NCBI GenBank assembly: GCA_000146045.2
Contig: BK006943.2
Span: 320,001-384,000 of the forward strand
Reading direction: 5' to 3'
Length of the DNA stretch: 64,000 nt
Source: TPA_inf: Saccharomyces
Lineage: Eukaryota
Shown: piece by piece, positions 2,158 through 58,433 of the stretch
Numbering within the stretch: position 1 is the first letter of the stretch
Layout: each line of letters starts with the position of its first letter
The notes under the pieces: generated by a model
Database searches by the model: none
What the model was told of the DNA's origin: nothing
The model's input: only the letters and a program-made list of their open reading frames with translations
Program-made: the position numbers and the translations under genes

Positions 2158-3385
2158 GTAAGCGACTTGCATAGTCTGCTATCATATATGTACGCTAAGA
2201 AACAACTGGGCAATGGTATAATATCATGTAGCAAGAGGACATTATATATGAATTGGTCAATATATAAAGCCTTCTGTGCACCAAATCGTTAGGATGATTT
2301 TTCAGTATGCTGTATCATTGTATCGTATATTCATTCGTATCTCTTTTACCTCACTAACCGCTGCCAAAATTTACATGTATACAAAATAAAAGTCTTTTTT
2401 ATGACCTTATTTGGTGAGTAATGCTACTTTTGTAAAGAGTGATGGAAACTATTATTCCAAAGGGTTAGAAGAAGGTGAGGAATACGTTCATATCACCGCT
2501 ACAGATCGTGTCTCTCGGTTATGAGTAATCAAACCCTCTGCAAGCAACACAGTTACTTTTTTTCGGTTTTTTCTTTTCGTGTGAATTTTTATCCAGTGAG
2601 TTTCCTTGTTCACTTTCGAGAATGGAAGGCTGATTTCGAATTTTTATATTCAACAACTGTATTTGTATTAGGCTTTGCAATAGTAGATGAAAAGTGCAGA
2701 AGACGAATCTGCTACCCTCACAATACAAAGAAAAACAAAATCGTCATTTTAATATAGGAAGACACCGCTCAGGTAATTCAATATTGAATCTGGTTGCACT
2801 TTTCTTACGATGTAAATACCCACAAACTTCTTGTACGGTGAGCGTCTGACAACGAAATCAATTTACGGAGCAAGGATTTTGACAGTAGAGCAGATTGTTT
2901 TGAGTAGGATTTAGGAATCAAGACCTCCATCTTTGTCGCATTATTCCTAAATGTAACGTAACTCGTTTGATAAGAGAATGTCTAATCGAAGAGAGTTAAT
3001 AACTTAATAAGCTCTTTAAAAGAACGATGGCATTTATCGTCTCCTATGCCAAGATAATTACTGGCTCAAAATTGTTCAGCGTTCATAAAACTTTGATATC
3101 ACTTTCTGGCGCACAAGCTAACCTTTATGTAGTTCTTACGTAGATTCTTTTTAGCAAGTGCCTGGTAGTGGTTATTACATAAATGTATCTTTTCATTTGA
3201 TAACAATTTCTTCAGTAGCATGTCGTGTCTAGCACGTGACGTAGAACTGTGGCTTTTTTGTTGTCATTATGACAATCAAGATACCAAAATTCAGTCATGT
3301 TTAAAAGGGGAAGGTACGATAGAGATATATATAAAGTGTTCAATTTACTATAATTGCGTATAGAATCCATTGTTACTTGCTCTCA

Positions 3386-4720
3386 ATGAAACAACGATTC
3401 ATTCGTCAATTTACGAACCTAATGTCTACTTCGAGACCGAAAGTTGTTGCCAACAAATATTTCACTTCTAACACTGCCAAAGATGTTTGGTCGCTAACCA
3501 ATGAAGCCGCTGCAAAAGCTGCCAATAACTCCAAAAACCAAGGCCGTGAACTTATTAATTTAGGCCAAGGCTTTTTTTCATATTCCCCTCCTCAATTCGC
3601 CATTAAGGAGGCTCAGAAAGCCCTAGACATTCCAATGGTCAATCAATATTCTCCAACTAGAGGTCGACCTTCATTAATTAATTCCTTGATTAAGTTGTAT
3701 TCTCCTATTTATAACACAGAATTGAAAGCGGAAAATGTTACCGTAACAACAGGTGCCAATGAAGGTATACTTTCTTGCTTGATGGGGCTTTTGAACGCTG
3801 GCGACGAGGTTATTGTTTTTGAACCTTTCTTTGACCAATATATTCCAAATATCGAACTTTGCGGTGGTAAAGTTGTTTACGTCCCCATAAATCCTCCAAA
3901 GGAATTGGATCAAAGGAATACTAGAGGTGAAGAATGGACCATTGACTTTGAGCAGTTCGAAAAAGCGATTACATCCAAGACAAAAGCTGTCATTATCAAT
4001 ACCCCTCACAACCCAATTGGTAAAGTTTTCACGCGCGAGGAATTAACCACTTTAGGTAACATTTGCGTCAAGCACAACGTTGTGATTATATCTGATGAAG
4101 TCTATGAACACCTTTACTTCACTGATTCTTTCACTAGAATTGCCACACTCTCTCCAGAAATTGGGCAACTAACCTTAACGGTCGGTTCTGCCGGTAAATC
4201 GTTTGCTGCTACTGGTTGGAGAATTGGTTGGGTCTTATCCTTGAACGCAGAGTTGTTAAGTTATGCAGCTAAGGCACATACAAGAATTTGTTTTGCATCT
4301 CCATCCCCTCTACAGGAAGCTTGTGCAAACTCTATTAACGACGCTTTAAAAATTGGGTATTTTGAAAAAATGAGACAGGAATATATCAACAAATTCAAAA
4401 TTTTCACATCGATCTTTGATGAATTGGGACTACCATATACAGCTCCAGAGGGTACATATTTTGTCCTCGTTGATTTCTCTAAAGTGAAAATTCCCGAGGA
4501 CTATCCCTACCCAGAGGAGATCCTGAATAAGGGAAAAGATTTTCGCATTTCTCACTGGTTGATCAATGAATTAGGTGTGGTTGCCATTCCACCAACTGAA
4601 TTCTATATCAAAGAGCACGAAAAGGCTGCTGAGAATTTGTTAAGGTTTGCAGTTTGTAAAGATGATGCTTATCTAGAAAATGCCGTAGAGAGATTAAAAC
4701 TACTCAAGGACTACTTATAA
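3386..4720 (+). CDS. BNA3: Kynurenine aminotransferase, a class I PLP-dependent aminotransferase (444 aa)
   Basis: The ORF-track start at 3377 is TTG; the first in-frame ATG is at 3386 (MKQRFIRQF...). An aminotransferase lysine motif GSAGKSFAATGWRIG is present. A TATA-like TATATATAAA lies about 50 bp upstream. Confidence 0.8.
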   Translation: MKQRFIRQFTNLMSTSRPKVVANKYFTSNTAKDVWSLTNEAAAKAANNSKNQGRELINLGQGFFSYSPPQFAIKEAQKALDIPMVNQYSPTRGRPSLINSLIKLYSPIYNTELKAENVTVTTGANEGILSCLMGLLNAGDEVIVFEPFFDQYIPNIELCGGKVVYVPINPPKELDQRNTRGEEWTIDFEQFEKAITSKTKAVIINTPHNPIGKVFTREELTTLGNICVKHNVVIISDEVYEHLYFTDSFTRIATLSPEIGQLTLTVGSAGKSFAATGWRIGWVLSLNAELLSYAAKAHTRICFASPSPLQEACANSINDALKIGYFEKMRQEYINKFKIFTSIFDELGLPYTAPEGTYFVLVDFSKVKIPEDYPYPEEILNKGKDFRISHWLINELGVVAIPPTEFYIKEHEKAAENLLRFAVCKDDAYLENAVERLKLLKDYL

Positions 4721-4963
4721 GATAAATTTTTTTTTATACTCCTTTTTCTCAATATATAGATTTTATAAAGCATGTATATTTTTATGCAGAAGTGGTAAAT
4801 ATAAACATCAATATTCCAGAATAATTCCATATTTTCTTCGCGTACTACAAGAAAAAGTGAACCCTTAATGAAAAATAGACAATATGAACATTTAGTAATG
4901 TTTTGAACAGTGTATTTATAGAGTACTTAAACACATATGAAGATATAGCGCAAGTAAATATAA

Positions 4964-6190
4964 ATGAGTGACAAATCTCATCAGATATATTGCTACTTTT
5001 GGCTCTTTGGTTTGATCAATAATGTACTTTATGTGGTAATACTTTCAGCAGCTGTTGATATCGTGGGTCCTACCTTGCCTAAATCTCTAGTATTGCTAGC
5101 AGATATATTCCCATCACTCGCCATTAAATTGTGTTCCCCATTCTTTATTGATAGAATCAAGTACAGCTATAGAATATGGTCTTTGATCACGATGAGTTGC
5201 TTAGGAATGTTCTTAGTTTCTTTTAAAAACTTGTTTGTTTGTCTTTTAGGAATATCTTTCGCATCTATATCTTCCGGATTTGGAGAAGTGACATTCCTAC
5301 AGCTAACACACTATTACAAACAAATTTCTTTGAATGGATGGTCGTCAGGTACTGGTGGTGCAGGAATCATTGGCGGAGCATCTTATATGTTCTTAACTTC
5401 AATCTTTAAAGTTCCAGTGAAGCTAACTTTACTAGTATTTAGTCTCCTTCCATTTGCATTTTTGTTTTATTTTAAATTAGAATCCAATGATACCAACCTG
5501 ACTTACCAAAGTCTTCAACAAATTGACGAAGCAGAGGATGACCAGTTGGTGCCCTTTCCTGTCGCCTTTACACATACCAACGCTTCGCAATCCCTGTATT
5601 CTACAAGACAGCACATTTTGCAAACGGTCAAGAGACTTCGAAGATTGGTTTTTCCATACATGGTTCCATTGACCACCGTCTACTTATTCGAATATTTAAT
5701 AAACCAAGCGGTAGCTCCGACCCTATTATTTCCGATTAATGGTGATGAAAGAAGTAAATCGATGCCATTTTTCTTCCATAAATACAGAGATATATACGTA
5801 ACCTATGGAACGCTCTACCAATTAGGTGTCTTTATATCAAGATCCTTTGGACATCTTATGAGAATGAGGAGTTTATACATCTTAGCGTTTTTACAAGGTG
5901 TGAATTTGTGCATAACGGTACTGCAATCATGGTTTTATGTCACACATTCGCCCTGGGCGGTGATGATATTAATATTCTATGAGGGTTTTCTTGGTGGTGC
6001 GTCATATGTTAACACATTCTTAAATATTCTCGAACAAGAGGATCCTGATGAAACAGAGTTCGCCATGGGTGCTGTGTCCATCGCTGATTCCTTTGGCGTT
6101 TTTTTGGCTGCGTTACTTGGTTTGGGGCTAGAACCCAAACTTTGTAGGCATCAAATTGCCGATGACAGACCTTGGTGTAGGATGGAATAA
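4964..6190 (+). CDS. YHC3: Battenin/CLN3 homolog, a polytopic vacuolar membrane protein (408 aa)
   Basis: ATG at 4964. Multi-TM hydrophobic profile. Length and synteny match YJL059W. Confidence 0.75.
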   Translation: MSDKSHQIYCYFWLFGLINNVLYVVILSAAVDIVGPTLPKSLVLLADIFPSLAIKLCSPFFIDRIKYSYRIWSLITMSCLGMFLVSFKNLFVCLLGISFASISSGFGEVTFLQLTHYYKQISLNGWSSGTGGAGIIGGASYMFLTSIFKVPVKLTLLVFSLLPFAFLFYFKLESNDTNLTYQSLQQIDEAEDDQLVPFPVAFTHTNASQSLYSTRQHILQTVKRLRRLVFPYMVPLTTVYLFEYLINQAVAPTLLFPINGDERSKSMPFFFHKYRDIYVTYGTLYQLGVFISRSFGHLMRMRSLYILAFLQGVNLCITVLQSWFYVTHSPWAVMILIFYEGFLGGASYVNTFLNILEQEDPDETEFAMGAVSIADSFGVFLAALLGLGLEPKLCRHQIADDRPWCRME

Positions 6191-6241
6191 AGTTTTGTTG
6201 TGATATTAAATAGGAGATTGAAATAAAGTGTTAGATGCTTT

Positions 6242-7873
6242 CTATATACTCATTCTAATGCCTGCTAATAACTCTTCGATAATTCGTTGATTTCTATCAT
6301 TACTTTGAATGGTACTCAATATGCCAAAACACTGCAGTAATGTCAATTTATCTGTTTCTGTGACATTACTTTCTTCTTCTTGATTGAAAATGTAAAGTTG
6401 AAAACTTTTGCTGATACCATCGTTACTATTTACGAAGTTTTCATAACAAGGTAAGACTATTGAATCTCTAAAGCACATAAGCAAAAGAAACCCAATAGAA
6501 TAATTACCATTAATGTGAGTCCGACTTTCATTGCCTGACTTTAAAACCGTAGAATTACCATCTTCTCTGATACTCTGATCCAACGGTAATAACACAGCGG
6601 CTAAATCATAATATACCTCTTGATAAAATATCCGCCATATAACGCCTAATCTTTTCAATGCGTTATTTATTGTGTCTTCATTAGAATAGTTAAAAACAAT
6701 TTGGTTTTCTAAATTGTATAGGGAACTAACCAAAAATTCTTTCAAATCGCTGATAATTCTATTCATGCCGCTATGTGTGACTCTTGGATCTGTTTTTAAA
6801 ATGCAATAGAATTCTAAAACTTCGTTAAAATTTTCTATTTTGGCCCTGAGTTTCCATATTCTTTGAGTTCTGAATAATTCTGCTACGTTACTACAAAATA
6901 TATTCCAAATATTATTTGTTAGGGTTGTCAGTTCTTGGGAGTTGAAGTGTTTATAGTTAGCTTCCAGAGATGGTAAATTTCTTAAAAGGTCGTGTAACAT
7001 TGAGACCGGATTCGGTGAGGCAGGATCAGTTCCAGAAAGCGGATCCTCAACGATTGTGTTGGGATTGACACCAGATGGATTAACATTCAATGAGTACACA
7101 GAAGTTCCTGAGTCCACAAGTTGCCCCGCATTAGTATGAATAAATTGTGACGGAGATTTATGTCTTCCGTAAGAGGAATGCAGAAATTTACTCAAGGAAT
7201 TTGGAATTGCAGGCTCGATAGCATCTTGACCAATGTGCCTGTGGCTTTTATTTTGGAAAAAGTTCTTAATCACGTTTCGAAATGAATGTGAACTATTATG
7301 TAAGGTGCTTGAATCTGTCAAAAAGGAGGCAGGATCCGATGAAATGGTCGTATGTGCTCTGTTTCTCCTATTAAAAAAGCCAGAAGCCTTTCCTTTCATA
7401 TACCTGCCGGAGGGCGTGGAGTGTAAACTTTTCTGAGTAATGGATATTGCATCAGAAGATAACTTTTTAGATAGATTGTTCGAGCACTCCACCGTGTCAA
7501 CGCTATGAGATTCCCCTATCTGAGAAGAACCAGATTTAGATGTTGCAGCTGAGGCATTGTCATTGCTCCTCAAGGAATGATTTGAGGCCACACTGACCTT
7601 CGATCGAGGATGATCTACTGTATGGAATATGGATTGGAAGCCAACGTTAGAAACACTAGGGCTAATGGGGTTCCTCGAGCCCTTCAAATTCTTGATGGAA
7701 TAAACGTCATCATTTGATGTGTCTACAAGAGTTTGCCGGCTAATCTCGCTTGTAGTCTGAAAATTTTTTACTGGGGCTGTGGCTAATTGCACATTAAGGT
7801 ATTGTTCGCTATTGACAGGGCGTTGTGTCGTAGTAGATGTTCTTTCTCGAAGGAGTATATCTTCTGCTGTCAT
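6242..7873 (-). CDS. BIT61: TORC2 subunit Bit61 (543 aa), Ser/Asn-rich
   Basis: CAT (ATG on the minus strand) at 7871-7873. 543-aa ORF. Synteny places it as YJL058C. Confidence 0.7.
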   Translation of the reverse strand: MTAEDILLRERTSTTTQRPVNSEQYLNVQLATAPVKNFQTTSEISRQTLVDTSNDDVYSIKNLKGSRNPISPSVSNVGFQSIFHTVDHPRSKVSVASNHSLRSNDNASAATSKSGSSQIGESHSVDTVECSNNLSKKLSSDAISITQKSLHSTPSGRYMKGKASGFFNRRNRAHTTISSDPASFLTDSSTLHNSSHSFRNVIKNFFQNKSHRHIGQDAIEPAIPNSLSKFLHSSYGRHKSPSQFIHTNAGQLVDSGTSVYSLNVNPSGVNPNTIVEDPLSGTDPASPNPVSMLHDLLRNLPSLEANYKHFNSQELTTLTNNIWNIFCSNVAELFRTQRIWKLRAKIENFNEVLEFYCILKTDPRVTHSGMNRIISDLKEFLVSSLYNLENQIVFNYSNEDTINNALKRLGVIWRIFYQEVYYDLAAVLLPLDQSIREDGNSTVLKSGNESRTHINGNYSIGFLLLMCFRDSIVLPCYENFVNSNDGISKSFQLYIFNQEEESNVTETDKLTLLQCFGILSTIQSNDRNQRIIEELLAGIRMSI

Positions 7874-8117
7874 AATGAAAGAACTTTATTTCTACAGAGG
7901 TCAATTGGCGTTTCTGTCACCTAGATCTTTTCATTTGGTTATTCCCTCTATAAATTTACTCATCGGTCAATTTTTCTAACATTATGCACCTTTGTCACCG
8001 GCCCTTAGAAGAGGTGAAGATGATTCGTGAACATTGGTGATAAGCGAGAATATTTTCTATAAATTTGTAAAGTAAAAATAAATTACGTGCTATTTAGTTT
8101 GCAATGTGTACTTATTG

Positions 8118-10121
8118 TTAGTATATGTATTTTTTGCATGCGGCGATGAAGGCCAGTAAAACCAACGCTCTTGCATGCTTACCTCTTTCATCAGCTGGTG
8201 ATTTAAAAACCATTCCCAACAATATCAGTGACATATAAGAGAGCCACGACCCCGTTTTGGTACACTTAAATATGATTATCGTTAATATCATAGAAACTAG
8301 TTTGTAACAAACCTGGATTGTTCTATTTAAAGCAGAATACTTTTGGAGGTTTTGGGTTGATACGGTGCTCAAATTTTCCTCTGGTGCTGGTAATGATAAA
8401 GTAACGTTGTCTCCGTCAATATAATCATCAGTAAAACTGTTGGTATTCTCATTCACTTCCGAGATTGTACTGAAGTTCAAAGTGCTATCCACATTTTCTT
8501 TCCAGAATTTTTTGCCGGGTTTGGAATTTATTAGCATTTCATCTAACGTCTCCTCCACTGTCTTCGCTGTGGGTCTAGCATCATTATTTGGTTGTAAAAG
8601 AGCGTCCATTAGGTGAAATATTCTACGGTCTATTGGTTTCAATTTCATCGCTTGATGCTTTTCAATCATACCTTCAGTGTCGAACCTAAAATTTTTGATG
8701 CGTACCTTCAAATCAACTATATCCAACTGTGGTTCAAAGGGCAATTCACCGAAGACAATAAAATAGCAAATCATTCCTAGAGAATACATATCGGAAGCAA
8801 AGGTGTATTCATTGTATGTGTGACTCGATCTTGAAGGCAACGTAGAAGAAGAAACTGGTCTCCCCTGGATAATAAGGTCTGGTGCTGTAAACTCTAATGT
8901 TCCTGTGCAACCAGTACCCAATCTGGACTCTCCTTCCAACTGACTTTCCCCCAAATCGCCAATAACAATTGATGGGAAAAACTCATCTGAATTGTGTTCC
9001 CTGTCGTATACGTTGTCATTCTCATTGTCACTTTTAAATGGAGTCAATAATAAACAGTTGGATGGTTTCAAGTCCCTATGTATTAGGCCAATACTGTGCA
9101 GTTCGTGTAAACCTCTTGCAATATCCCTTATAATGGATACGAGCTGTTCCGTAGATAGGCCAACTTCTCCTGATTTACCGTGATTTTTCTTGCGAGTTCT
9201 AAATTTTTTTTTCCTCTCTTCAGGTGATTCGGTATCTGAGAACCTATTGAACACTTTTCTTAGAATACAGTCTTCTAAATTGCCGCCACTGCAATACTGT
9301 TGTAAAATGAAAATACAAGGAACTTCTTCTTGTGAATCCGATTGGCTCCCATCAATGGATCTGACAAATCCAACCGAAGAATCCATTTCGAGCCACACAT
9401 GATTATACGTAATCAAATTGGCACTTTTGTGAGTTAGCGAACTCAACGCTTTCACTTCCCGTATGCACTTATTAAACCATTCCATATCATTTCCAATAGG
9501 TATTTTTTTTAGTGCAAAAACACCTAATTCAGTATTACCAATTGTGTGTACAACTTTGTAAACAGAACCTCTTGCACCATTTCCCAGCAAAGACAATATT
9601 TTGAAAAATTTACGAAAGTATCCGGGGATAAACAAATCATCTGGAATAAAGTATTTGTTTTTGCTGAACTGTCCCTGCTTATTGTTACTATCGTTTTGTA
9701 GGGCGTAGTGCCGATGATTTCTTTCCAATGACTGAAAATATCTTCTTGAAAAGCTTGAATTGGCAAATTCAAATCCAAGTGGCACAGTGTTCTCTGGAAT
9801 ACTGAGCCTACTGCTTTCTGATTCTACTCCAGCAGAGGCTCGACGATGAAGTTGTCTTCTGTTTATAATATCAGGGTTAATTTCCGTACCACATTGCGGG
9901 CACACATAGGAAGCAATAGGGCTTTTGTATTGATGAATCCCTGAAGGAAAGTCCAGTGCTGATAAAGATGCAGTCTGGTCTTCATTTAGTTCAGAGTCAT
10001 TATTACTGTTGTCCTGTTGGAAAAATGATAAAGTTCCTGAGGTTGGATTAACAACCACCACTGATTTAGAATTAGGATCATCTAAAATCAGCGAACCTTC
10101 TTCATATGGTACTAAACTCAT
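8118..10121 (-). CDS. IKS1: Ser/Thr protein kinase Iks1 (667 aa)
   Basis: Kinase catalytic-loop motif HRDLKPSN, and GxGxxG-like [12 protein letters not shown] with VAIK-like FALKKI. Start codon at 10119-10121 (minus strand). Confidence 0.75.
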
Positions 10122-33615: not shown

Positions 33616-34243
33616 CGTTGATGAATATTTCAATTCACTTGTAAATAACGTAGGTAAATATCAAAATTAAAGTCTTTCACCGGAAACTGATTCAGCATAT
33701 TTCAGCAGACGCGTCCTAGATTCACAGCAAACTTCAATATAAGCGATACATTAGGAGTGTTCGTACTTTAGATCTATAAGAACTATATTTTGTTACGATT
33801 CAGCCGTCTCTAAATGTGAACTAAATATTTATACTGTTATTTGAGAAACCGACAGATAGTACTTAATTTTATCGATCATCTAAGAATAGCATCGGTATTG
33901 TGGTGACATTTATTGAATTTCTTCCGCTCCAGAATAAAGTTCCTTTTCACTTCAAAAAACTGCCACCAGTAAAGTTGCACCAGTGGTTTTTGAGCATTTT
34001 TTGTCAATGTCGCTTAACCGTTCTTGAACTGTATCCTCTTGACGTCGATAAAATCATTTGTAAAAACCAGGCCAAATCATCATTGAATAATTTACACTGT
34101 GTCTTCAATGTCGCCATTTGGACCAATAATTATCAAACTGTTCACAATTCACTCAAAGTCCTTTCAGCAACATTCTTATGAAACAATACTTTCTTTGAAT
34201 TTGTATGATGAAACAAAATTTTTTGGTTATTAATCATTTATCA

Positions 34244-34331
34244 CTCTCGGTAGCCAAGTTGGTTTAAGGCGCAAGACTGTAATTTACCACTACGAAATCT
34301 TGAGATCGGGCGTTCGACTCGCCCCCGGGAG
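34244..34331 (+). tRNA. tY(GUA): tRNA-Tyr(GUA) with a 14-nt intron at about 34282-34295
   Basis: CTCTCGGTAGCCAAGTT...GACTGTAA[tttaccactacgaa]ATCTTGAGATCGGGCGTTCGACTCGCCCCCGGGAGA. Canonical yeast tRNA-Tyr with an intron 3' of the anticodon. A T-run terminator follows. Confidence 0.9.
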
Positions 34332-34524
34332 ATTTTTTTAATGTGCTCTAAATAGAATGTGGATGAAATTTCTCTTGGCCGCCGTACCCTTCTTCATAAT
34401 TAATAATTTCTTTCCATTTTGCAGGATTATATCTGATCAATAAGTGATTGTAAAGATTTTGTTTGTGAGAAATATGTGAATTTTTAATTTTGGTTATAAC
34501 TTAATAATTGTTGGAATTCCATTT

Positions 34525-35213
34525 TTGATAAAGATGAAAATTGGTGAATTTTGAGATAATTGTTGGGATTCCATTGTTGATAAAGGCTATAATATTAGGT
34601 ATACAGAATATACTAGAAGTTCTCCTCGAGGATCTAGGAATCCTCATAATGGAACCTATATTTCTATATACTAATATTCCGTTTTATTCCTTATTCCGTT
34701 TTATATGTTTCATTATCCTATTACATTATCAATCCTTGCACTTCAGCTTCCTCTAACTTCGATGACAGCTTCTCATAACTTATGCCATCATCTTAGCACC
34801 ATATATGATAATATATTGGTAGTATGACTACTAGTTGATAGACTGAAGAGAATGTGGATTTTGATGTAATTGTTGGGATTCCATTTTTAATAAGGCAATA
34901 ATATTAGGTATGTAGATATACTAGAAGTTCTCCTCGAGGATTTAGGAATCCATAAAAGGGAATCTGCAATTCTATACAATTCTATAAATATTATTATCAT
35001 CATTTTATATGTTAATATTCATTGATCCTATTACATTATCAATCCTTGCGTTTCAGCTTCCACTAATTTAGATGACTATTTCTCATCATTTGCGTCATCT
35101 TCTAACACCGTATATGATAATATACTAGCAACGTAAATACTAGTTAGTAGATGATAGTTGATTTTTATTCCAACATAGACGATAGTTGATTTTTATTCCA
35201 ACAGTGTTGACAT
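34525..35213 (-). mobile_element. Solo Ty1/Ty2-type delta LTR (about 340 bp) interrupted by a nested LTR insertion. Its two parts are 34525-34843 and 35191-35213.
   Basis: Reverse-complement delta sequence (TGA[A]AATTGGTGAATTTTGAGATAATTGTTGGGATTCCATTGTTGATAAAGGCTATAATATTAGGTATACAGAATATACTAGAAG...), resuming after the insertion as GATAGTTGATTTTTATTCCAACA. Confidence 0.8.
34844..35185 (-). mobile_element. Solo Ty LTR (342 bp, delta/tau-like, TG...CA termini) inserted inside the delta at 34525-35213. A 5-bp target-site duplication TAGAC flanks it (34839-34843 and 35186-35190).
   Basis: The element begins TGAAGAGAATGTGGATTTTGATGTAATTGTTGGGATTCCATTTTTAATAAGG and ends ...GATAGTTGATTTTTATTCCAACA, with identical TAGAC on both sides. 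Removing it restores a contiguous delta. Confidence 0.75.
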
Positions 35214-35214
35214 A

Positions 35215-35366
35215 TAAATACTAGTCAACTAAATGGTAATTGGTTATTATTCCTCAACATTCTGCTACCAAACGCAAATGTAGTAGGAGAGTTTAGATTT
35301 TCAACGTTGGTTTGCGAGATTGGTGAAATCAAAGCATAGTTTACCTTTAATCCCAATCTTCCAACA
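35215..35366. repeat. About 150-bp LTR-like remnant with TGTTG...CCAACA termini directly upstream of tRNA-Arg (possible sigma/Ty3-type or other LTR fragment)
   Basis: It starts TGTTGACATATAAATAC and ends ATCTTCCAACA 7 bp before the tRNA-Arg 5' end. A homologous ~60-bp flank sits upstream of the second tRNA-Arg copy. The family is not determined. Confidence 0.3.
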
Positions 35367-35373
35367 AACAGTA

Positions 35374-35446
35374 GCTCGCGTGGCGTAATGGCAACGCGTC
35401 TGACTTCTAATCAGAAGATTATGGGTTCGACCCCCATCGTGAGTGC
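35374..35446 (+). tRNA. tR(UCU): tRNA-Arg(UCU), the first gene of a dicistronic Arg-Asp unit
   Basis: GCTCGCGTGGCGTAATGGCAACGCGTCTGACTTCTAATCAGAAGATTATGGGTTCGACCCCCATCGTGAGTG. The anticodon loop CTTCTAA gives UCU. Confidence 0.9.
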
Positions 35447-35456
35447 TTTGTTTCTT

Positions 35457-35528
35457 CCGTGATAGTTTAATGGTCAGAATGGGCGCTTGTCGCGTGCCAG
35501 ATCGGGGTTCAATTCCCCGTCGCGGAGA
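35457..35528 (+). tRNA. tD(GUC): tRNA-Asp(GUC), the second gene of the dicistronic unit, 10-bp spacer CTTTGTTTCT
   Basis: TCCGTGATAGTTTAATGGTCAGAATGGGCGCTTGTCGCGTGCCAGATCGGGGTTCAATTCCCCGTCGCGGAG followed by a T-run terminator. Confidence 0.9.
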
Positions 35529-36023
35529 TTTTTTTTGAAGCTGTTGTAGTTACTACTTTAAGATCCAGATTGATACAGTACGTATGTGAGGCAACAGATA
35601 CTTGCAATATAACAAGTTTTGTGAAGAGATAGTGTGAATACCTATGGTTCCACGCAAGAAATCATCTATTTGAATTTTCGGCTTCTATAAGAATGACAAA
35701 ACTCATAGGAAGCTGCAATGCATTAATTTTCCGTAAGCTTTATTAACCCGTTAGCCGCTCAAGTCGCTTTTCTCAGGTCGCGCTCCTCTTCTCCGGACTT
35801 ATGTGGCTCCCTTTAGAATATAAGGGTCTTCCCTTTAACGGAACAGTAAGGTTCCACAAGGTGGCAAAAAAGGCAATCCAACCGACACTTCGGCAAATTT
35901 CTTTCACTCTAGTCAGAGCTAAGTTCTTATATATACTTTCTAAATAATTATCTGCTAAAATAAGAAAAGAAGGAGCCTAAATACGTATATCTATATACAT
36001 GTATACACGTGAGCTAATAAATT

Positions 36024-37928
36024 ATGTTATCTTTGAAAAAAGGAATAACAAAATCATACATCTTGCAAAGAACTTTCACTTCTTCCTCTGTTGTTCGTCA
36101 AATTGGGGAAGTGAAATCTGAATCGAAACCGCCGGCCAAATATCATATTATCGACCATGAATATGATTGTGTGGTGGTAGGCGCTGGCGGTGCAGGTTTA
36201 AGAGCAGCTTTCGGTTTGGCTGAAGCTGGATACAAGACTGCTTGTTTATCCAAGTTGTTTCCAACAAGGTCACATACTGTGGCTGCTCAGGGTGGAATTA
36301 ATGCTGCGCTGGGAAATATGCATCCAGATGATTGGAAATCGCACATGTACGACACTGTCAAGGGTTCTGACTGGCTCGGAGACCAAGATGCAATCCATTA
36401 CATGACAAGAGAAGCACCTAAGTCTGTCATTGAACTAGAACATTACGGTATGCCCTTTTCGAGGACTGAAGATGGAAGGATTTACCAGAGAGCATTTGGG
36501 GGACAATCCAAAGATTTTGGTAAAGGTGGACAGGCCTATAGGACTTGTGCGGTGGCAGATAGAACAGGTCACGCAATGCTTCATACATTGTATGGACAAG
36601 CGCTGAAAAATAATACACACTTCTTTATTGAATACTTTGCAATGGATTTGTTGACCCATAATGGCGAGGTTGTGGGTGTCATTGCCTATAATCAGGAGGA
36701 CGGTACAATTCACAGATTCAGAGCACATAAGACCGTCATCGCGACAGGCGGATACGGTAGAGCTTACTTCTCTTGCACTTCTGCTCACACTTGTACAGGT
36801 GACGGTAATGCTATGGTTTCTCGCGCTGGATTTCCACTAGAGGATTTAGAATTTGTTCAATTTCATCCGTCAGGAATTTATGGGTCTGGCTGCCTAATCA
36901 CTGAAGGTGCCCGTGGTGAGGGTGGATTTTTATTGAATTCTGAAGGAGAAAGGTTTATGGAACGCTATGCTCCTACTGCCAAGGACTTGGCAAGCAGGGA
37001 TGTTGTTTCCAGAGCAATCACCATGGAAATCAGGGCTGGCAGAGGTGTCGGGAAAAACAAGGATCATATCCTTTTACAATTAAGCCATCTACCACCTGAG
37101 GTACTAAAGGAAAGGCTACCGGGAATATCTGAAACAGCTGCTGTCTTTGCGGGTGTCGATGTCACCCAGGAGCCAATTCCTGTCTTGCCAACTGTCCATT
37201 ATAATATGGGAGGCATTCCCACAAAATGGACTGGTGAAGCATTGACCATTGACGAGGAAACTGGAGAGGATAAGGTCATCCCAGGATTGATGGCGTGTGG
37301 TGAAGCTGCTTGCGTATCGGTTCATGGAGCGAACAGATTAGGCGCTAACTCACTACTGGATTTAGTCGTTTTCGGTCGCGCCGTTGCAAATACCATTGCT
37401 GACACATTACAGCCTGGCTTGCCTCATAAGCCATTGGCTTCAAACATCGGGCACGAGTCAATTGCTAATTTGGATAAAGTAAGAAATGCTCGCGGCTCAC
37501 TGAAAACCTCTCAAATCAGGTTGAACATGCAAAGGACAATGCAAAAAGATGTTTCTGTTTTCAGGACGCAAGACACTCTAGATGAAGGTGTTAGAAATAT
37601 TACTGAAGTGGACAAGACATTTGAGGATGTGCACGTTTCTGATAAGTCAATGATCTGGAATTCTGATCTCGTAGAAACTCTGGAATTGCAAAATTTACTT
37701 ACTTGTGCCACACAAACGGCTGTTTCTGCTTCCAAAAGAAAGGAGTCTCGTGGTGCTCATGCGAGAGAGGACTATGCAAAAAGAGATGATGTGAATTGGA
37801 GAAAGCACACATTATCATGGCAAAAGGGGACATCAACACCTGTAAAAATCAAGTACAGGAATGTAATCGCACATACTTTAGATGAGAATGAATGCGCCCC
37901 AGTCCCTCCAGCTGTCAGATCCTATTAA
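36024..37928 (+). CDS. YJL045W: Succinate dehydrogenase flavoprotein subunit paralog (SDH1 paralog, 634 aa)
   Basis: FAD-binding GxGxxG ([13 protein letters not shown]). The covalent-FAD histidine context [15 protein letters not shown] and the fumarate reductase/SDH C-terminal domain. N-terminal mitochondrial presequence [18 protein letters not shown]. Confidence 0.85.
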
Positions 37929-54422: not shown

Positions 54423-54494
54423 TCTCCGCGACGGGGAATTGAACCCCGATCTGGCACGCGACAAGCGCCCATTCTGACCATTAAACTATCACGG
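54423..54494 (-). tRNA. tD(GUC): tRNA-Asp(GUC), second copy (minus strand), in a dicistronic unit with tRNA-Arg
   Basis: Reverse complement identical to the Asp gene at 35457-35528. Confidence 0.9.
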
Positions 54495-54504
54495 AAGAAA
54501 CAAA

Positions 54505-54577
54505 GCACTCACGATGGGGGTCGAACCCATAATCTTCTGATTAGAAGTCAGACGCGTTGCCATTACGCCACGCGAGC
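54505..54577 (-). tRNA. tR(UCU): tRNA-Arg(UCU), second copy (minus strand), with the same 10-bp spacer to tRNA-Asp
   Basis: Reverse complement identical to 35374-35446. The spacer AGAAACAAAG is the reverse complement of CTTTGTTTCT. Confidence 0.9.
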
Positions 54578-54849
54578 TACTATTTGTTGAAGGTTTTACT
54601 ACTTTATTATAGTAAAACCTAATTACGCTTTCAATTACTACAATTTTCGGATTTTCACGGCTGGTGAAATAATGCAGCCTGTATTGCATAAAATGGCCGC
54701 ACTTATGAGAACTGATACAAGTTGTTTACCGTTGGGGCACCAAGGTGTTATTAGTCAGAAATAAATGTAAATTTCTTATACTGCAAAGCAGAGGTACATA
54801 TAACACACATCGATTGGTTCATCTTGGCTACGACTAATATTTTTGGGAT

Positions 54850-54918
54850 GCAGGTGAATAATTAGATAATTGTTGTAATTCCATTGTTATTAAAGGCTAT
54901 AATATTAAAGGTTATTTG
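54850..54918 (-). repeat. Degenerate delta (Ty1/2 LTR) fragment about 270 bp upstream of the minus-strand tRNA-Arg
   Basis: GGTGAATAATTAGATAATTGTTGTAATTCCATTGTTATTAAAGGCTATAATATTAAAGGTTAT matches the delta terminus (reverse complement) with mismatches. Confidence 0.5.
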
Positions 54919-57336: not shown

Positions 57337-57611
57337 GAAAATGTTGCCGATTTTGTTTTTGCCACTCCTGTACATTGTTTAATCTCAGATCGTTGTATAT
57401 ATATACATATATATAGTGTTTTAACGACATTCTTATATTTGCATTTCTGCTTCTTATTACACCTAACTATTCTGTAACTGCCATGGGTAAGCATTTTTGA
57501 AGTATTAATTAACAATTAAACTTTCAAACATACCCACCCTTTCGTTGGAATAAAAATCAATTAACACCCACTGACTAGTAAATATTACTAGAATAACTGA
57601 TGATTATGCCA

Positions 57612-57745
57612 ATTTTCTGACAGTTGTTGGGTTTCCATTGTTGACGAAGGTCCTATTATTAGATATACGGAACATACTAGATCTCTCGAGCCTATCGGAA
57701 CCTACTAAGCGGAATCGGCAATATACATGTTATTCATTTTTTTCG
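57612..57745 (-). repeat. Diverged delta-like LTR remnant about 620 bp upstream of tRNA-Val
   Basis: GTTGTTGGGTTTCCATTGTTGACGAAGGTCCTATTATTAGATATACGGAACATACTAGATCTCTCGAGCCTATCGGAACC aligns to the delta reverse complement (GTTGGGATTCCATTGTTGATAAAGGCTATAATATTAGGTATACAGAATATACTAGAAGTTCTCCTCGAGGATATAGGAATCC). Confidence 0.45.
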
Positions 57746-58359
57746 TTTTTCGTTTTACATTATTAATTTTACGTCTCAACTTGGTTCAATTTCAGAGACA
57801 GCATCTCATCACATCTATCATCTTTTTGTACCACATAAGGTAATATACACGTAATAATAGGCAATAGATGTGTGCGAATGAACTTCCAATATAATCCATT
57901 TAGTAGTGCCTTTTGTTACTAATATTCGTCAGTTTCTCAAGCTGACACTTGATTTATTCTAAACAAATTTCAATCTTGGACAATTAGTTGACATAAACTA
58001 CGTTACTAATTTTTGTTGTATTAAGGGCTTAAATAATACCGGATGTCTTGGCAATTCTATCGTTAGGAGAGTAATAGTTGTCAGACTTATTGTCGGCTTG
58101 TTCGCACATCGTTACTTATCCTATATTATACATAAGATCTGGTGAAGCGAGGAGTCCCATGTCTAAACCGATTGCTCAGGTATTTACAGGTTTAACTGCT
58201 TCATTTAAGCAAGCAATTATTGAATTATATACTCAATCTTGTCTCTCCCGTTACTATTATTTCATTCGCGTTTTATACATCTTTATTATTATAAGTTTGA
58301 TACGGTAACTTTACAATCGATTAATTTCTGCTGAAAGCCCAAGCTTTCATAAATTAATA

Positions 58360-58433
58360 GGTTTCGTGGTCTAGTCGGTTATGGCATCTGCTTAACACGC
58401 AGAACGTCCCCAGTTCGATCCTGGGCGAAATCA
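58360..58433 (+). tRNA. tV(AAC): tRNA-Val(AAC)
   Basis: GGTTTCGTGGTCTAGTCGGTTATGGCATCTGCTTAACACGCAGAACGTCCCCAGTTCGATCCTGGGCGAAATCA followed by a T-run. Confidence 0.9.

Follow-up and report, generated by a model that had tools for sequence, protein, structure and literature searches.

A Ty2 Solo LTR Nested within an Old Solo LTR of the Ty1 Type Upstream of a tRNA-Arg(UCU) Gene of Saccharomyces cerevisiae

Introduction

Upstream of a tandem pair of tRNA genes on chromosome X of Saccharomyces cerevisiae S288C two solo LTRs of the same orientation are found in direct contact with each other. The question raised by this locus is whether they are independent neighbours or whether a younger Ty element has been inserted into the remnant of an older one, and, if the latter is true, from which families the two come, by which route the arrangement was formed, and how often such a remnant is hit. 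The window, i.e. the whole stretch of DNA that was analysed, has a length of 64,000 nucleotides and contains genes in the order cullin, lipoate ligase, flavoprotein paralogue, RabGAP, and MHP1-like protein. By this gene order and by its coordinates it appears to correspond to about chrX:320001-384000 of S288C. Neither the elements nor the kind of event is new: that Ty elements are targeted to Pol III genes and later undergo LTR-LTR recombination is textbook knowledge. A sequence-only reading of the locus had suggested a nested LTR-in-LTR insertion with a 5-bp target-site duplication at a tRNA-proximal hotspot. This interpretation is supported by the analysis described here and can be made more specific: the guest is a Ty2 LTR, the host a Ty1 LTR, and the targeting gene tRNA-Arg.

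Structure of the Nested LTRs

The features of the locus are compiled in Table 1. All structural elements that had been described from the letters are present; the coordinates on the right-hand side had been given 10 too high and some boundaries had been drawn wrongly.

Table 1: Features of the nested LTR locus and of the neighbouring tRNA genes in positions of the window.
Feature	Positions	Strand	Remarks
tRNA-Tyr(GUA), 14-nt intron	34244..34332	+	ARAGORN with introns allowed; missed in bacterial mode
Older delta fragment	34466..34534	-	U5 end of Ty1-type LTR, ~14-bp internal insertion; abuts outer LTR
Outer solo LTR, main piece (YJLCdelta4, old Ty1 type)	34535..34843	-	LTR positions 24-332
Left TAGAC copy	34839..34843	.	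GTCTA, positions 24-28 of outer Ty1 LTR
Inner solo LTR, Ty2 family (YJLCdelta5)	34844..35175	-	Complete, 332 bp, TG...CA ends
Right TAGAC copy	35176..35180	.	Letters read at these positions
Outer Ty1 LTR, 23-bp remnant	35181..35203	-	GATAGTTGATTTTTATTCCAACA; LTR positions 1-23
Probable older delta fragment	35204..35258	-	U3 start, ...TATTCCTCAACA; directly right of outer LTR
tRNA-Arg(UCU), first of Arg-Asp tandem pair	35374..35446	+	ARAGORN; Rfam RF00005, 67.5 bits
tRNA-Asp(GUC), second of pair	35455..35528	+	ARAGORN, Rfam

For the inner LTR the claimed start and the TG...CA termini were found as described; its end had been placed at 35185, which would have made it 342 bp long. In a direct reading of 33800-36000, with positions checked by a script, it was seen as TGAAGAGAATG...TTTTTATTCCAACA. 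Its plus-strand letters are TGAAGAG...TTCCAACA, which is TGTTGG...TCTTCA in the orientation of the LTR. The left copy of the pentamer TAGAC stands exactly where it had been placed. A right copy does exist as well, not at 35186-35190 as had been claimed, where the letters read TTGAT, and the short remnant of the outer LTR beyond it does not lie at 35191-35213.

The left end of the outer LTR had been set at 34525. With a boundary at 34525 or 34526 the LTR would be 341 bp long, and 9 bp of it would have no counterpart in the Ty1 reference. A start at 34535 (TGAAAATTGG...) fits best: it yields 332 bp, with TGAAAA... corresponding to ...TTTTCA, and an alignment with the Ty1 reference from end to end. 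The main piece finishes with ...CTAGTTGATAGAC at its right end, and when it is joined to the 23-bp remnant (34535-34843 plus 35181-35203) a complete 332-bp LTR is obtained.

The pentamer was then traced to its origin. In the Ty1 LTR reference GTCTA, the reverse complement of TAGAC, occurs once, at positions 24-28, and it belongs to neither end of the Ty2 LTR; the left TAGAC is hence host sequence and the right one an extra copy. At the local base composition a chance match of five nucleotides has a p of about 0.0016. The pair is a target-site duplication beyond chance, for which the empty-site alleles described below are more decisive than the p value. On either side the inner LTR borders on TAGAC and outer-LTR sequence, forming the junctions GTTGATAGAC/TGAAGAGAATGTGG and TTATTCCAACA/TAGACGATAGTTG, and neither TGGTAGCGCC nor GGGTGGTA (primer-binding site, polypurine tract), as would be expected of internal Ty sequence, adjoins either end. 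The host LTR thus consists of two collinear parts which rejoin after removal of the guest and one copy of the duplication. The nesting of the Ty2 LTR within the Ty1 LTR is real.

Family Assignment

As the window contains neither a full-length Ty element nor a full-length reference LTR, outside references were used, and the TY1-, TY2-, and TY4-LTR sequences of File S1 from Carr, Bensasson and Bergman 2012 (PMC3511429) were taken for global alignment. The inner LTR was 99.4% identical to TY2-LTR (330/332, no gaps), 82.6% to TY1-LTR, and 56.8% to TY4-LTR. The rebuilt outer LTR aligned to TY1-LTR from the first to the last base, spanning TGTTGG to TCA with 91.7% identity (311/339), a divergence typical of inactive copies; its identities to TY2-LTR and TY4-LTR were 78.7% and 58.8%. 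The alignment therefore separates the two into deltas of different families. In Carr et al. 2012 the inner LTR is placed in the Ty2 active clade and the outer one is labelled 'Inactive' (PMC3511429). A 1-bp deletion relative to Ty1 is cited there from Kim et al. 1998 as diagnostic for Ty2; the family calls made here rest on overall identity and on the published clade call.

Further evidence was sought from sequences in which an LTR is attached to a coding region. A contig with a Ty2-type gag (L011) carries at its 5' side 124 bp which are 96.8% identical to the R-U5 part of the inner LTR and 86% identical to the outer one. This gag falls in a protein cluster (P0017) with members named YLR410W-A-like, YOR192C-A-like, and YOR343W-B-like, a cluster which was reached by a protein search with a Ty2 gag and in which no source name says 'Ty2' outright. 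The systematic names YLR410W-A, YOR192C-A, and YOR343W-B are those of Ty2 elements. The contigs encoding members of this cluster are short metagenome assemblies, in which the 5' LTR is represented by its last 124-150 bp only, and a protein search with the Ty1 gag returned no Ty2 gag. The counterpart for Ty1 is the element found in strain assembly L009 (see below), the gag of which is 99% identical to 'Transposon Ty1-OR Gag' and the 5' LTR of which is 97.9% identical to TY1-LTR. The inner LTR thus combines identity to the Ty2 reference, TG...CA termini, a length of about 332 bp, and a U5 which in a related sequence is continuous with a Ty2-type gag. On the basis of the alignments with the reference LTRs and of these gag and LTR comparisons, the outer element is best classified as an old Ty1-type delta and the inner one as a young Ty2 delta. 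Ty2 entered S. cerevisiae recently.

Alleles in Other Strains

With the aid of an adjacent protein of 634 amino acids, an FAD-binding succinate-dehydrogenase-type flavoprotein encoded at 36024-37928, the locus with its flanks was located in 12 different S. cerevisiae assemblies. Five of the 12 (L001/L014, L004/L017, L005/L018, L008/L022, and L023) have an empty site. In these the Ty1 LTR is uninterrupted and contains a single TAGAC, reading ...CTAGTTGATAGACGATAGTTGATTTTTATTCCAACA, and the distance from tRNA-Tyr to tRNA-Arg is 793 bp compared to 1130 bp in the window, the difference of 337 bp being equal to 332+5. It had been predicted that excision of the insert and one TAGAC restores a delta terminus, and it is exactly this sequence, in accordance with the Ty1 alignment, which is found in the five strains. 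The presence of the predicted empty site in five assemblies settles the nesting. One further assembly (L007/L021) has a spacer identical to that of the window.

The remaining assemblies showed that the same host LTR has been hit at other positions too. Plus-orientation Ty2-type LTRs were found in it with the duplication AAATC (L002 and L019) and with the duplication GAACC (L003). A minus-orientation LTR with the duplication ATTCC lies just 4 bp from the host end (L006/L020, 2842-3175). Over positions 1-322 this LTR shares 95.7% identity with TY2-LTR, but its U5 end (TGAAAAATTGGTGGATTTTGATC..., CCATTGTTGAT) is Ty1-like, and it looks like a Ty1/Ty2 hybrid; hybrid Ty1/2 LTRs are mentioned by Carr et al. 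2012 (PMC3511429). In L009 (GCA_030035915.1) this host LTR contains a full-length Ty1 at a distance of 1 bp from the site in the window, with a right junction of ...CCAACA followed by AGACG; the duplication AGACG is tentative in this case, being read at the right junction only. L010 has a compound allele, in which a Ty4 LTR 100% identical to the reference (2633-3003, GTTAC duplication) is contained in an older tau-like LTR (together 2496-3169) which itself sits in the Ty1 host LTR with a GATTT duplication, resulting in a three-level nest. The L010 allele has in addition another delta with a junction to AGACG and a loss of 110 bp of the host LTR. The insertion of an LTR into an LTR with a 5-bp duplication, as it had been read from the letters, is thus borne out by the reference alignments, the single pentamer in the Ty1 reference, five empty alleles, and at least four further independent insertions.

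Two different LTRs, in L009 (3150-3160) and L010 (2484-2500), share the same right junction, ...CCAACA followed by AGACGATAG, which is 1 bp from the TAGAC site of the window. They are 97.9% (L009) and 84.7% (L010) identical to TY1-LTR. The common junction came about either because the same nucleotide was hit twice independently or because one element was replaced by another.

Two of the strains with an empty allele, L004/L017 (GCA_029990965.1, 2468-8381) and L001/L014 (GCA_949124225.1, about 2766-8558), have about 6 kb of extra DNA, located in both between the lipoate-ligase gene and tRNA-Tyr. In L017 this DNA is bounded by two Ty1 LTRs (2468-2799 and 8050-8381), each 96.5% identical to the reference, which indicates a full-length Ty1 upstream of tRNA-Tyr. 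In L014 one Ty2-like LTR (94.4%) was detected at 2766-3107.

Mechanism of Formation

The arrangement is best explained by the integration of a Ty2 element into a resident Ty1 solo LTR with duplication of TAGAC, followed by recombination within the element to a solo LTR, a reading to which a probability of about 0.93 is assigned. The starting point was an old Ty1-type solo LTR upstream of the tRNA-Arg(UCU)-tRNA-Asp(GUC) pair. This LTR, between its positions 23 and 29, received a Ty2 which has the same minus orientation, and the usual staggered 5-bp cut of the integrase led to the duplication of TAGAC; these first steps are directly visible in the sequences. Homologous recombination between the two LTRs of the Ty2 would then have removed the internal region and one LTR, leaving the complete 332-bp solo LTR flanked by the duplication. 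As to the choice of the site, Ty1-, Ty2-, and Ty4-type integrases are directed to nucleosomal DNA in the zone of about 1 kb upstream of Pol III genes, due to which old LTRs located in this zone are hit repeatedly. The split host LTR, the LTR families, the duplication, the empty allele, and the repeated independent hits are all observed in the sequences; that the insert was once full-length and collapsed by recombination within the element is what we infer from them, and the mechanism of targeting is presumed from the literature to apply to this locus.

The step from a full-length Ty2 to a solo LTR has to be inferred since a full-length Ty2 at TAGAC is present in 0/12 assemblies, a sample too small to be evidence against the recombination pathway. 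The same observation would favour an arrival of the Ty2 LTR as a solo LTR from the beginning, e.g. as aberrant LTR-only cDNA, such that a full-length Ty2 never existed at this site, and the intact duplication would be compatible with either route. Recombination within the element is, however, how solo LTRs that keep their duplication are known to form. Moreover, full-length elements do land in this LTR, as is seen from the full-length Ty1 of L009, whose site differs by 1 bp, and a direct arrival as solo LTR is therefore considered improbable.

A second possibility would be that some other Ty1 LTR already had a Ty2 at the same pentamer and that the nested arrangement was copied from there by ectopic gene conversion or recombination. 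In its favour, a Ty2 LTR follows ...GTTGATA[N]AC of a Ty1 LTR at a different locus, chrIV_st39+_TY2 (W303 row). The insert on chromosome IV has the opposite relative orientation, however (TGTTGG after the pentamer), and the sequence of the outer LTR on both sides of the insert in the window agrees with the locus's own empty alleles, with no conversion tract visible. An origin by conversion is thus very improbable, and integration followed by recombination within the Ty2 element is the explanation retained.

History of the Outer LTR

For the outer LTR no target-site duplication was found at either candidate boundary, the flanks AAAGA and GTGTT being equal at 0/5 positions. Because of this a simple scheme of insertion followed by internal recombination does not explain the outer LTR, which has a more complex history. 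The view that there had been successive Ty integrations each followed by LTR-LTR recombination holds cleanly for the inner LTR with its intact duplication only. The membership of the outer LTR in its family is unaffected by the missing duplication; its flanks are no longer those of one simple insertion. Its solo state was probably reached by recombination between different elements or by a deletion.

On both sides the outer LTR is bordered by still older material. A third delta fragment had been recognised upstream at 34486-34524; it is real and longer than described (Table 1). It aligns locally to TY1-LTR 287-316 with a score reached by 0/1000 shuffles, its first 16 nucleotides, TGAGAAATATGTGAAT, are the reverse complement of the terminal 16-mer of TY1-LTR, BLAST gave 93% over 30 bp, and it is present in all strains examined. 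The probable fragment on the right aligns locally to TY2-LTR 5-42 (0/1000 shuffles), the match to TY1-LTR being weaker (66/1000). Both fragments have minus orientation and are placed as the ends of an older delta would be, and they may be the two ends of one such delta. Two Ty1 elements may plausibly have inserted at different points of this older delta and recombined with each other, which would have deleted the middle and left one LTR with unmatched flanks. The loss of host LTR seen in L010 is comparable to such a deletion.

tRNA Genes and Recurrent Targeting

The tRNA-proximal hotspot which had been postulated is confirmed by the recurrent insertions into the same LTR, and the target can be narrowed down to tRNA-Arg(UCU). 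The outer LTR lies about 170-171 bp upstream of this gene and the Ty2 insertion site 196 bp upstream; tRNA-Arg(UCU), found 171-198 bp downstream of the site, is the relevant Pol III target. The tRNA-Tyr gene on the other side is not a likely target since the insertions are located on its 3' side.

In the coordinates of the empty allele the insertion sites are 177, 184, 195, 196, 382, and 396 bp upstream of tRNA-Arg. They form two clusters, from -177 to -196 and from -382 to -396, about 200 bp apart. Across the 12 assemblies this single 332-bp LTR, which lies less than 1 kb upstream of a tRNA gene, shows at least five different junctions or duplications, and the locus is a recurrent Pol III-upstream hotspot with repeated independent hits. 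For Ty1 two hotspots per nucleosome near the H2A/H2B interface have been described (PMC3545840), and upstream of tRNA genes an equal dyad pattern is displayed by Ty2 and Ty4 insertions of natural origin (PMC10347736). By analogy, the two clusters at this locus may correspond to nucleosome surfaces. As in the Ty1 hotspots of Baller et al. 2012 and Mularoni et al. 2012 (in PMC3545840) and in the natural Ty1, Ty2, and Ty4 insertions of PMC10347736, the hits lie less than 1 kb upstream, in both orientations, recurrently, and in short zones. Those studies pooled many loci, whereas here natural alleles at a single locus are compared.

The target pentamer was encountered again on another chromosome. 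In the W303 row of File S7 of Carr et al. (PMC3511429) the element chrIV_st39+_TY2 is listed with a Ty2 LTR after ...CACTAGTTGATA[N]AC of a Ty1 LTR, which is the same delta pentamer as the target in the window, the insert being oppositely oriented. The match may be a coincidence or may mark a preferred spot in deltas.

The tRNA-Arg and tRNA-Asp genes are 8-10 nt apart (tttgtttctt; 35447-35454). A spacing as short as this agrees with the Arg-Asp tRNA pair of yeast, which is known to be co-transcribed. The tRNA-Arg(UCU)-tRNA-Asp(GUC) pair occurs twice in the window, at 35374-35528 and at 54423-54577, inverted and about 19 kb apart, with identical Rfam scores. LTR remnants lie upstream of the second pair too (196-330 bp), one of Ty4 (about 54773-54840) and one of Ty1 (about 54854-54907), according to Carr et al. 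File S3 and BLAST. A further cluster of Ty1 LTR fragments (57544-58284, with BLAST matches at 57544-57681) lies upstream of tRNA-Val(AAC) (58360-58433), annotated as Ty1 fragments at sacCer2 377539-377590, 377600-377854, and 378009-378279 (PMC3511429). In a BLAST of both LTRs against the rest of the window short fragments only were found, at 54853-54907 and 57544-57681. Comparison of the region with a plasmid collection yielded no match; for DNA of a yeast chromosome this result carries no information.

Comparison with the Published Annotation

The two LTRs of S288C chromosome X are the same DNA as two entries in Carr et al. (PMC3511429), whose sacCer2 coordinates in File S2/S3 correspond to window+320000-5. 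The element chrX_st124-_TY1 = YJLCdelta4 (sacCer2 354539-354838) is given there as solo, of an inactive clade, and present in 20/23 scored strains, and chrX_st125-_TY2 = YJLCdelta5 (sacCer2 354839-355170) as solo, of an active clade, polymorphic, and present in 3/16 scored strains (PMC3511429). Orientation, the length of 332 bp, families, and polymorphism all agree with the results reported here; the strain comparison for the nested element, with empty sites in 5/12 assemblies and one allele identical to the window, likewise confirms that it is polymorphic. The three strains in which YJLCdelta5 was scored as present are S288c, DBVPG6044, and Y55 (PMC3511429). As the host LTR was scored as absent in DBVPG6044 and Y55, the calls for these two strains may reflect other alleles rather than this insertion.

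The tables of Carr et al. describe two abutting solo LTRs with a truncated YJLCdelta4; the 23-bp remnant, the TAGAC duplication, and the nesting are absent, and neither 34466-34534 nor 35204-35258 is annotated (PMC3511429). That the nesting is unrecorded can be seen from the plain 'REannotate_LTR' label of both entries, where other loci bear '1-nested', and from the end of the annotation at sacCer2 355170. The 23-bp piece is below the detection limit of RepeatMasker/REannotate. Two independent adjacent solo LTRs without nesting, with a Ty1 LTR shortened by about 28 bp at its U3 end, would be in line with these plain entries, which in the GFF of Carr et al. 2012 abut at sacCer2 354838/354839 with no nested flag, but such an explanation can hardly be upheld, as the Ty1 LTR continues with its missing 23 bp directly beyond the Ty2 LTR after the second TAGAC, the two pieces join to an end-to-end Ty1 LTR, and this LTR is uninterrupted in five strains, the empty alleles and the collinear remnant together refuting it. 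The nested structure itself has parallels: in Fig. 1 of Carr et al. a full-length Ty2 interrupts a Ty1 fragment, and this case, as well as the loci entered as '1-nested' in File S3, likewise represents a younger Ty in an older tRNA-upstream LTR with collinear host pieces. Compared with these, the guest is already a solo LTR in the present case and one of the host pieces is just 23 bp long.

Conclusions

For the annotation of the S. cerevisiae genome the analysis yields a correction: instead of being truncated, YJLCdelta4 is interrupted by YJLCdelta5, and the 23-bp remnant, the TAGAC duplication, and the flanking older deltas have to be added. Beyond such bookkeeping the significance is small, since the LTRs and their families had been catalogued and nested tRNA-upstream Ty insertions are textbook knowledge in yeast. 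One might go further and speculate that integrase targeting has been recorded naturally and at high resolution in this Ty1 remnant of 332 bp, with at least five independent hits by Ty1, Ty2, and Ty4, two zones, a shared junction to AGACG, and the pentamer match on chromosome IV, and that these hint at a preference for sequence or structure inside deltas beyond Pol III and nucleosome targeting, an idea which is rather unlikely to hold and is put forward as a tentative one. What the locus does offer is a clean picture, from natural strains and at a single locus, of how often one tRNA-upstream remnant is hit again.
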